This document shows positions 15,541 through 15,640 of a stretch of 64,000 nt of DNA, piece after piece. The notes under the pieces are model-generated. The model did no database searches, was not told where the DNA came from, and worked only from the letters and a program-made list of their open reading frames with translations. Position 1 is the stretch's first letter; the number at the start of each line of letters is the position of its first letter. The position numbers were made by a program, and so were the translations under genes. The stretch lies in NCBI RefSeq assembly GCF_003334315.1, contig NZ_QOWR01000020.1, one strand, 5' to 3'. Source of the stretch: Escherichia coli (lineage in GTDB: Bacteria > Pseudomonadota > Gammaproteobacteria > Enterobacterales > Enterobacteriaceae).

Positions 15541-15640
15541 TGCCTGATGCGCTTCGCTTATCAGGCCTACGTGAATTCTGCAATTTATTGAATTTACAAA
15601 TTTTTGTAGGCCGGATAAGGCGTTCGCGCCGCATCCGGCA
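15541..15640. repeat. BIME/RIP-type element: two inverted REPs with AT-rich linker
   Basis: TGCCTGATGCGCTTCGCTTATCAGGCCTAC ... linker GAATTCTGCAATTTATTGAATTTACAAA ... GTAGGCCGGATAAGGCGTTCGCGCCGCATCCGGCA. Confidence 0.8.

Follow-up and report, generated by a model that had tools for sequence, protein, structure and literature searches.

Introduction

BIME-1 elements are defined by one y and one z1 REP and occur as single copies (PMC3333891; PMC2817692); their published size is 140 bp (PMC1187871). Binding of IHF has been reported for BIME-1 at the level of the class (PMC3333891; PMC2817692). For BIME-2 an enrichment of gyrase cleavage has been published (PMC6379681). REPINs are found in similar copy numbers in related genomes, and their loci are long-lived (PMC8049555; PMC3333891).

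Here we analyze a BIME in a stretch of 64,000 nt from Escherichia coli (contig NZ_QOWR01000020.1), which we call the window. According to the annotation of CP53 the element is located between pfkA (14523-15485, + strand) and sbp (ATG at 15806). An 801-nt query around the element is 100% identical to CP53 (NZ_CP033096.1) and 98.3% identical to K-12 MG1655. In the RefSeq record of MG1655 we searched for REP or RIP features and found CDS features alone at the pfkA-sbp locus. Judged by its sequence, the pfkA feature is a BIME-1 (RIP, RIB), and this holds for its REPs, its long linker, its unit size and its location. The initial annotation had already assigned the element to the BIME-1/RIP class, and rightly so, since a Y and a Z1 REP are inverted around a conserved long linker in a single, extragenic element at the 3′ end of a gene.

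Relatives of the element were retrieved with one exact-pattern scan of species-representative genomes, which yielded at least 120 loci. The matches listed stem from E. albertii, E. whittamii, two divergent representatives named "E. coli", Escherichia sp. MOD1, two Pseudocitrobacter and a few chance or contaminant contigs. We set aside as chance matches the loci from P. putida, an Oxalobacteraceae MAG and a Nitrospira MAG, which are not accompanied by REPs.

Structure of the element at pfkA

The locus downstream of pfkA is built up from the following features.

15517-15541, + strand: outer flank on the Z1 side, TGAAACCGATGACAGAAGCAAAAAT; column conservation 0.55-0.91 over 25 nt, then about 0.3 (102 copies among the matches listed)
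15542-15570, + strand: Z1-type REP (palindromic unit), 29 nt, GCCTGATGCGCTTCGCTTATCAGGCCTAC; iREP orientation with CTAC at the end
15571-15605, - strand: L linker, 35 nt, AT-rich; reading of the - strand AAAAATTTGTAAATTCAATAAATTGCAGAATTCAC
15581-15593, - strand: IHF-consensus-like core within the linker, ATTCAATAAATTG; WATCAANNNNTTR is matched at 8 of the 9 specified positions, with the mismatch at position 2
15606-15639, + strand: Y-type REP, 34 nt, GTAGGCCGGATAAGGCGTTCGCGCCGCATCCGGC; GTAG at the start
15640-15670, + strand: outer flank on the Y side, ATCGATAAAGCGCACTTTGTCAGCAATATGA; conservation 0.57-0.92 over 31 nt, then about 0.3
15669-15695, + strand: intrinsic terminator of pfkA, with the stem-loop at 15669-15689, a T-run at 15688-15693 and the mapped RNA 3′ end at 15695

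The two inverted REPs around a linker which the initial annotation had placed at 15541-15640 are indeed present. The order Z1, L, Y can be read from the sequence, and the two REPs are mutually inverted with arms (15557-77 and 15599-619) that are 81% complementary. The REP was typed as Z1 by comparison with Z2: it lacks the GACGC...GCGTC stem extension, which is present in the 37-nt Z2 REP at 10479-10515 of the window and in the Z2 half of the consensus of naRNA4 (Rfam). Within the linker, the 28-nt string GAATTCTGCAATTTATTGAATTTACAAA at 15573-15600 occurs once in the window, where the chance expectation is 0. Compared with MG1655, the pfkA copy of the window strain has three substitutions in L; all of them are outside of the IHF-like core and one weakens the small linker palindrome.

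The boundaries of about 100 nt proposed at the outset are too short. As conserved flanks extend beyond both REPs, the repeated unit has a length of about 154 nt and covers positions 15517-15670. It begins 31 nt past the stop codon of pfkA and reaches the terminator stem at 15669. The two outer flanks, which presumably are the outer BIME-1 motifs named "A" and "B", are in partial mutual inversion (TGACA.../...TGTCA), and in the RNA fold the flank on the Y side forms a small hairpin, GATAAAG-CGCA-CTTTGTC. When folded as single-stranded DNA the whole unit (15517-15670) forms one long hairpin (z = -3.8) in which Z1 pairs with Y and outer flank with outer flank. Inspection of the sequence revealed no second unit at the pfkA locus; the element is single and non-tandem.

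Further copies and other REP elements in the window

A closely related linker had been noted at two other loci of the window, and this is borne out. The 17-nt linker core AAATTCAATAWATTGCA is found exactly at 15579-15595 (- strand), 35004-35020 (+ strand) and 44841-44857 (+ strand), and with up to two mismatches it has four matches in the window compared to a mean of 0.05 in shuffled sequences. The initial annotation had suggested aligning the three linkers; all of them align with each other and with the BIME-1 L consensus, and the three elements (pfkA, metJ/yiiX and gldA/yijF, gene names which are all correct according to the annotation) align across about 100 nt. The copies at metJ/yiiX and gldA/yijF have the same layout as the pfkA copy in the opposite orientation on the + strand. 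The additional members in the window are:

34960-35056, + strand: second BIME-1 copy, with Y at 34960-34993, L at 34994-35027 and Z1 at 35028-35056; 3′ of metJ (-) and 5′ of yiiX (-)
44797-44894, + strand: third BIME-1 copy, with Y at 44797-44830, L at 44831-44865 and Z1 at 44866-44894; 3′ of gldA (-) and 5′ of yijF (-)
about 39330-39392, - strand: truncated or degenerate relative between metL and metF, with the Y-like REP GCCGGATTCGTCGTAAACGCTTAATCCGGCCTA and the degenerate L TAATTCAATATATTTCA, without Z1

The metJ copy has no outer flank on the Z1 side and in the gldA copy the flank on the Y side is partly deleted. Among the three copies of the window the full-length unit is present only at pfkA. 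The truncated relative between metL and metF (about 39330-39392) was absent from the list of the initial annotation.

The window also contains REPs of other types. A single unit of the BIME-2 type (Z2, short linker, Y) is located at 10477-10562 between the convergent genes yiiM and cpxA and scores 78.6 bits on the - strand and 49.2 bits on the + strand with the Rfam model naRNA4 (RF02564, gathering score 59.5). Between argE and ppc there are three tandem REP-pair units of about 123 bp (60354-60701) with sub-threshold naRNA4 scores of 50.7-56.7 bits. This array starts 3 nt past the argE stop codon (60704-60706), a spacing which we take to be within the distance where REPs were reported to affect translation termination. 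Further REPs without an L linker are a single Y at 1654-1690, a Z2-like REP at 22677-22713 and a REP pair with a short linker at 55438-55519. A sub-threshold match to Rfam Hrs1 (44.5 bits, gathering score 56.4) is found at 13286-13358 on the - strand in the cpxP-fieF spacer, just past cpxP and on the strand opposite to cpxP. Above the gathering scores Rfam reports the ClpQY (hslVU) promoter element and the L31 (rpmE) leader, at 29293-29350 (-) and 33962-34014 (+), both of which are expected there.

Transcription of the element within the pfkA 3′ UTR

In the Term-seq data of MG1655 (supplements of PMC7815308) a + strand 3′ end is mapped to position 4108723. This position corresponds to 15695 of the window; the U-tract ends here, and the ATG of sbp follows 111 nt downstream. 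The 3′ end has an intrinsic terminator score of 10.4 as well as a Rho score of 3.2 and is listed within a "significant Rho termination region" (bicyclomycin-sensitive). Between the coding region of fieF and 4108723 the MG1655 Term-seq tables contain no other 3′ end on the + strand. As the 3′ end is located at the terminator past the unit, the BIME-1 is included in the transcript, where it makes up most of the 3′ UTR of pfkA. These data show that the element is cotranscribed with pfkA and fills nearly the whole 3′ UTR from the stop codon to the terminator. The terminator hairpin itself is supported by a compensatory double change (G>A and C>T) in Escherichia sp. MOD1 (L121), where GGCGG/CCGCC is replaced by GGCAG/CTGCC. 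The predicted RNA fold of the 225-nt pfkA 3′ UTR is unusually stable (z = -5.5), and Z1, Y, the flank and the terminator form separate hairpins in it. For the metJ copy, a Term-seq 3′ end at 4127909 (- strand), corresponding to 34917 of the window, lies just past the flank on the Y side.

The location of the relatives is similar. With flanking genes called crudely from open reading frames, 85 copies among the matches listed could be classified, 50 of them between convergent, 33 between co-directional and 2 between divergent genes; 83 of these 85 copies adjoin the 3′ end of a gene. Co-directional copies have a median distance of about 40-46 nt from the stop codon upstream and are farther away from the start codon downstream (about 110-127 nt). 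The family contexts reproduce the known location at the 3′ ends of transcription units.

The linker as a putative IHF site

The spacing between CTAC and GTAG has a sharp mode of 35 nt, the length of 98 of the 127 REP-anchored linkers among the matches listed. Each of the three linkers of the window carries ATTCAATAWATTG, which is the IHF consensus WATCAANNNNTTR with one mismatch. Thus the IHF motif ascribed to the linker by the initial annotation is present in all three copies as a consensus-like core, but not as an exact match. Equally good matches are common by chance. In the window the consensus WATCAANNNNTTR has 4 exact matches and 62 with at most one mismatch, and therefore the motif alone is weak evidence. 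The case for IHF at the pfkA copy is made by the published work at the class level. In the literature which we searched no paper joins IHF ChIP with pfkA and sbp, REPs are not mentioned in Prieto 2012, and the tables of the Dps paper contain nothing usable on IHF at this locus.

The profile of the family is nevertheless informative when its construction is taken into account. Columns 12-19 and 22-26 were fixed by the search pattern and the conservation of the L core is thus partly forced. The unforced positions 20 and 27 of L are conserved to 94% and 84%. An A-tract is located 9-12 nt upstream of the core on the same strand; columns 1-4, likewise unforced by the search pattern, are conserved at 0.88-0.97. 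In the orthologous pfkA copies the sole change within the 13-mer core is at an N position. The arrangement of A-tract, about 8 nt, WATCAA, NNNN and TTGCA presumably resembles the H' site of phage lambda.

The left arm TGCAA of the linker palindrome is conserved to 73-88% at its four variable positions. We considered that TGCAA...TTGCA might be maintained as a hairpin and rejected this, as changes in the left arm are uncompensated (17 linkers with C8-A27 versus 2 with C8-G27; 13 with T11-T24). The pattern of variation in L agrees better with a site of protein recognition than with a hairpin that is maintained.

Age and conservation

E. albertii and Escherichia sp. MOD1 likewise carry the BIME-1 at their orthologous site between pfkA and sbp; the MOD1 copy tolerates a deletion of 10 nt within the Y REP. 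A 251-nt query, 61% of which is BIME-1, is covered to at least 80% in 5312 of 5426 complete E. coli genomes. The orthologue in E. albertii and the presence in these genomes indicate that the pfkA copy is old and nearly fixed. The gldA copy has orthologues in E. albertii (L022) and E. whittamii (L104). Between E. coli and E. albertii the identity amounts to 92-95% for the element, 93.4% for pfkA and 90-93% for the adjacent spacer. The element has thus diverged no less than the flanking DNA or pfkA, and there is no sign of special constraint.

Several observations on the relatives are added here. Tandem arrays of the BIME-1 type (Y-L-Z1) are present in Escherichia sp. MOD1-EC7003, at 9409-9798 and 11475-12413 of L117, the latter continuing into L118 (77-289), with 3.0 units of 130 bp and 5.2 units of 182 bp. 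A further tandem array of this type occurs in E. albertii (L006, 6956-7531; 147 bp x 3.9), whereas the literature describes BIME-1 as single copies. Pseudocitrobacter (a MAG and P. faecalis DSM 27453; L027-L057) accounts for many near-consensus BIME-1 among the matches listed, and their outer flanks are better conserved than those of Escherichia (median identity 0.83-0.92). Perfect BIME-1 of the Escherichia type were found in the Bacteroides MAG contig CAUHML010000178.1 (L026) and in a 262-bp contig of Desulfosporosinus sp. OT (L071); both are most likely contaminating enterobacterial contigs.

Discussion

We suggest the following history and role for the element. The pfkA BIME-1 would stem from the non-autonomous repeats of the REP/BIME (REPIN) type, which are thought to be spread by a REP-associated Y1 transposase acting on single-stranded hairpin DNA (PMC3333891; PMC2817692; PMC8049555). 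Such repeats would survive mostly at the 3′ ends of genes where an insertion does little harm. The pfkA copy would have inserted between stop codon and terminator before E. coli and E. albertii split. Its L linker is a putative IHF site, composed of the core ATTCAATAAATTG and the upstream A-tract, and IHF would, by analogy, bend the DNA between the REP arms. In the 3′ UTR of pfkA the REP hairpins could serve as barriers to 3′ exonucleases, and they may add to a Rho-sensitive attenuation before sbp; for both roles we draw on the literature on the family. The single pfkA copy probably has little effect on the host. The three copies of the window would be independent insertions and not a cooperating set. 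Taken as a whole, this explanation, that is, a full-length BIME-1, an old insertion, predicted bending by IHF, transcribed 3′ UTR hairpins, a small host effect and independent copies, appears to us very probable.

The initial annotation had seen in the three copies within 30 kb a hint to a local role in nucleoid structuring or transcript processing. In its strongest version the three copies would be a functional cluster of spaced IHF sites which cooperate in structuring 30 kb of the nucleoid. Within 29.4 kb there are indeed three full copies as well as one remnant, all three full copies have the same orientation with respect to the upstream gene (Z1 first), and at least three copies in a pre-specified window of 64 kb would have a probability of about 0.01 if the genome had only 32 copies. 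However, the window was not pre-specified and the number of 32 is a minimum: with a linker query of 51 nt, at least 32 places are matched in CP53 and at least 33 in K-12-type genomes, both numbers being limited by the E-value. When copies are placed at random in a simulation, a triple within 29.4 kb is found somewhere in the genome in 39% of the cases for N = 32 and in 95% for N = 60. With such chances, a probability of 0.39 or more for a triple somewhere in the genome, the cluster needs no special explanation, and the local role is unsupported. In addition, the copies are unequal in completeness, and we had to reject the Z1-first orientation as a rule of the family (21 versus 12 co-directional copies among the matches listed, p = 0.16), which also counts against a functional cluster. 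We hold such a cluster to be very unlikely. Very unlikely, too, in our view, is an independent small-RNA gene (Rfam ES036, also CssrF, RF02751) transcribed from the linker strand antisense to pfkA. The RF02751 model does match above its gathering score of 37.6 at 15563-15604 on the - strand (46.2 bits) and at 34994-35035 on the + strand (39.6 bits), the gldA copy remaining below it with 34.8 bits. At each of the three loci of the window the match lies antisense to the genes on both sides. But the 43-nt consensus of RF02751 is nothing else than the BIME-1 L motif with the first bases of Z1. The match therefore gives the repeat a second name and adds no evidence of its own for an sRNA. Moreover, there is no sigma-70-like promoter match on either strand at 15400-15900, the MG1655 Term-seq tables contain no 3′ end on the - strand near the locus, and the stem of the model shows no compensatory variation in 89 distinct linkers among the matches listed. 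The Rfam ES036 matches correspond to the BIME-1 L motif and should not be taken as sRNA genes.

More weight has to be given to the possibility that the pfkA copy has been domesticated, either as a stabiliser which sets the level of the pfkA mRNA or as an IHF- or Rho-dependent insulator which shields the CysB-controlled sbp promoter from pfkA transcription and supercoiling. The copy is nearly fixed in E. coli and kept in E. albertii, while many BIME-1 loci are polymorphic for presence and absence (PMC1187871), and the unit occupies the 3′ UTR immediately before the terminator. A significant Rho termination region (Rho score 3.2) includes the Term-seq 3′ end. According to published reports, Rho-dependent termination is facilitated by REPs (PMC2817692), and BIMEs block the diffusion of supercoils (PMC6907758). 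On the other hand, the conservation of the element is not above that of the flanking DNA, one lineage (Escherichia sp. MOD1) tolerates the deletion in the Y REP, and retention can be explained by the absence of a deletion mechanism. In the literature we found no locus-specific functional data. We therefore regard domestication as unlikely. The same doubt applies to the combined proposal that the fixed BIME-1 is not a passive repeat but a locus-specific insulator, dependent on IHF and/or Rho, and at the same time an mRNA stabiliser, which sets the PfkA output and shields the sbp promoter. An old insertion with a small effect on the host remains our preferred explanation.

The pfkA BIME-1 is an already-described, ordinary repeat of E. 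coli, neither new nor unusually clustered. The finding in itself matters little, as the class of repeats has been known since the early 1990s and the locus is shared with E. coli K-12. What is useful are the corrected boundaries (about 154 nt), the relabelling of ES036, the membership in the 3′ UTR as seen from public Term-seq data and the realization that chance placement is expected to give local "clusters" of such repeats.

Comparison with known systems

REPINs, the REP doublets mobilised by RAYT (TnpA-REP), share with the pfkA element the inverted REP doublet which folds into one long hairpin as single-stranded DNA. The pfkA element differs in that its arms are asymmetric (Y with 34 nt and Z1 with 29 nt) and its loop is a conserved linker which is putatively protein-binding. 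A cognate RAYT (TnpA-REP) gene is not found within the 64-kb window.

BIME-2, a target of gyrase, is composed of Y and Z2 with a short S linker and is usually tandem. Alternating REPs in intergenic DNA are common to BIME-2 and the pfkA element. However, BIME-2 has a Z2 REP of 37 nt and an S linker of about 11 nt in tandem units, whereas the pfkA element has a Z1 REP of 29 nt and an L linker of 35 nt and is single, and thus it is not a BIME-2.

With BIME-1, known also as RIP (repetitive IHF-binding palindromic element) or RIB (reiterative IHF BIME), the pfkA element shares the inverted Y and Z1 REPs and the 35-nt L linker with an IHF-consensus-like core. The outer motifs, the unit size of about 140-154 bp, the single copy at the locus and the extragenic position at the 3′ end of a transcription unit agree as well. 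Between the described BIME-1 and the pfkA copy we see no essential difference.
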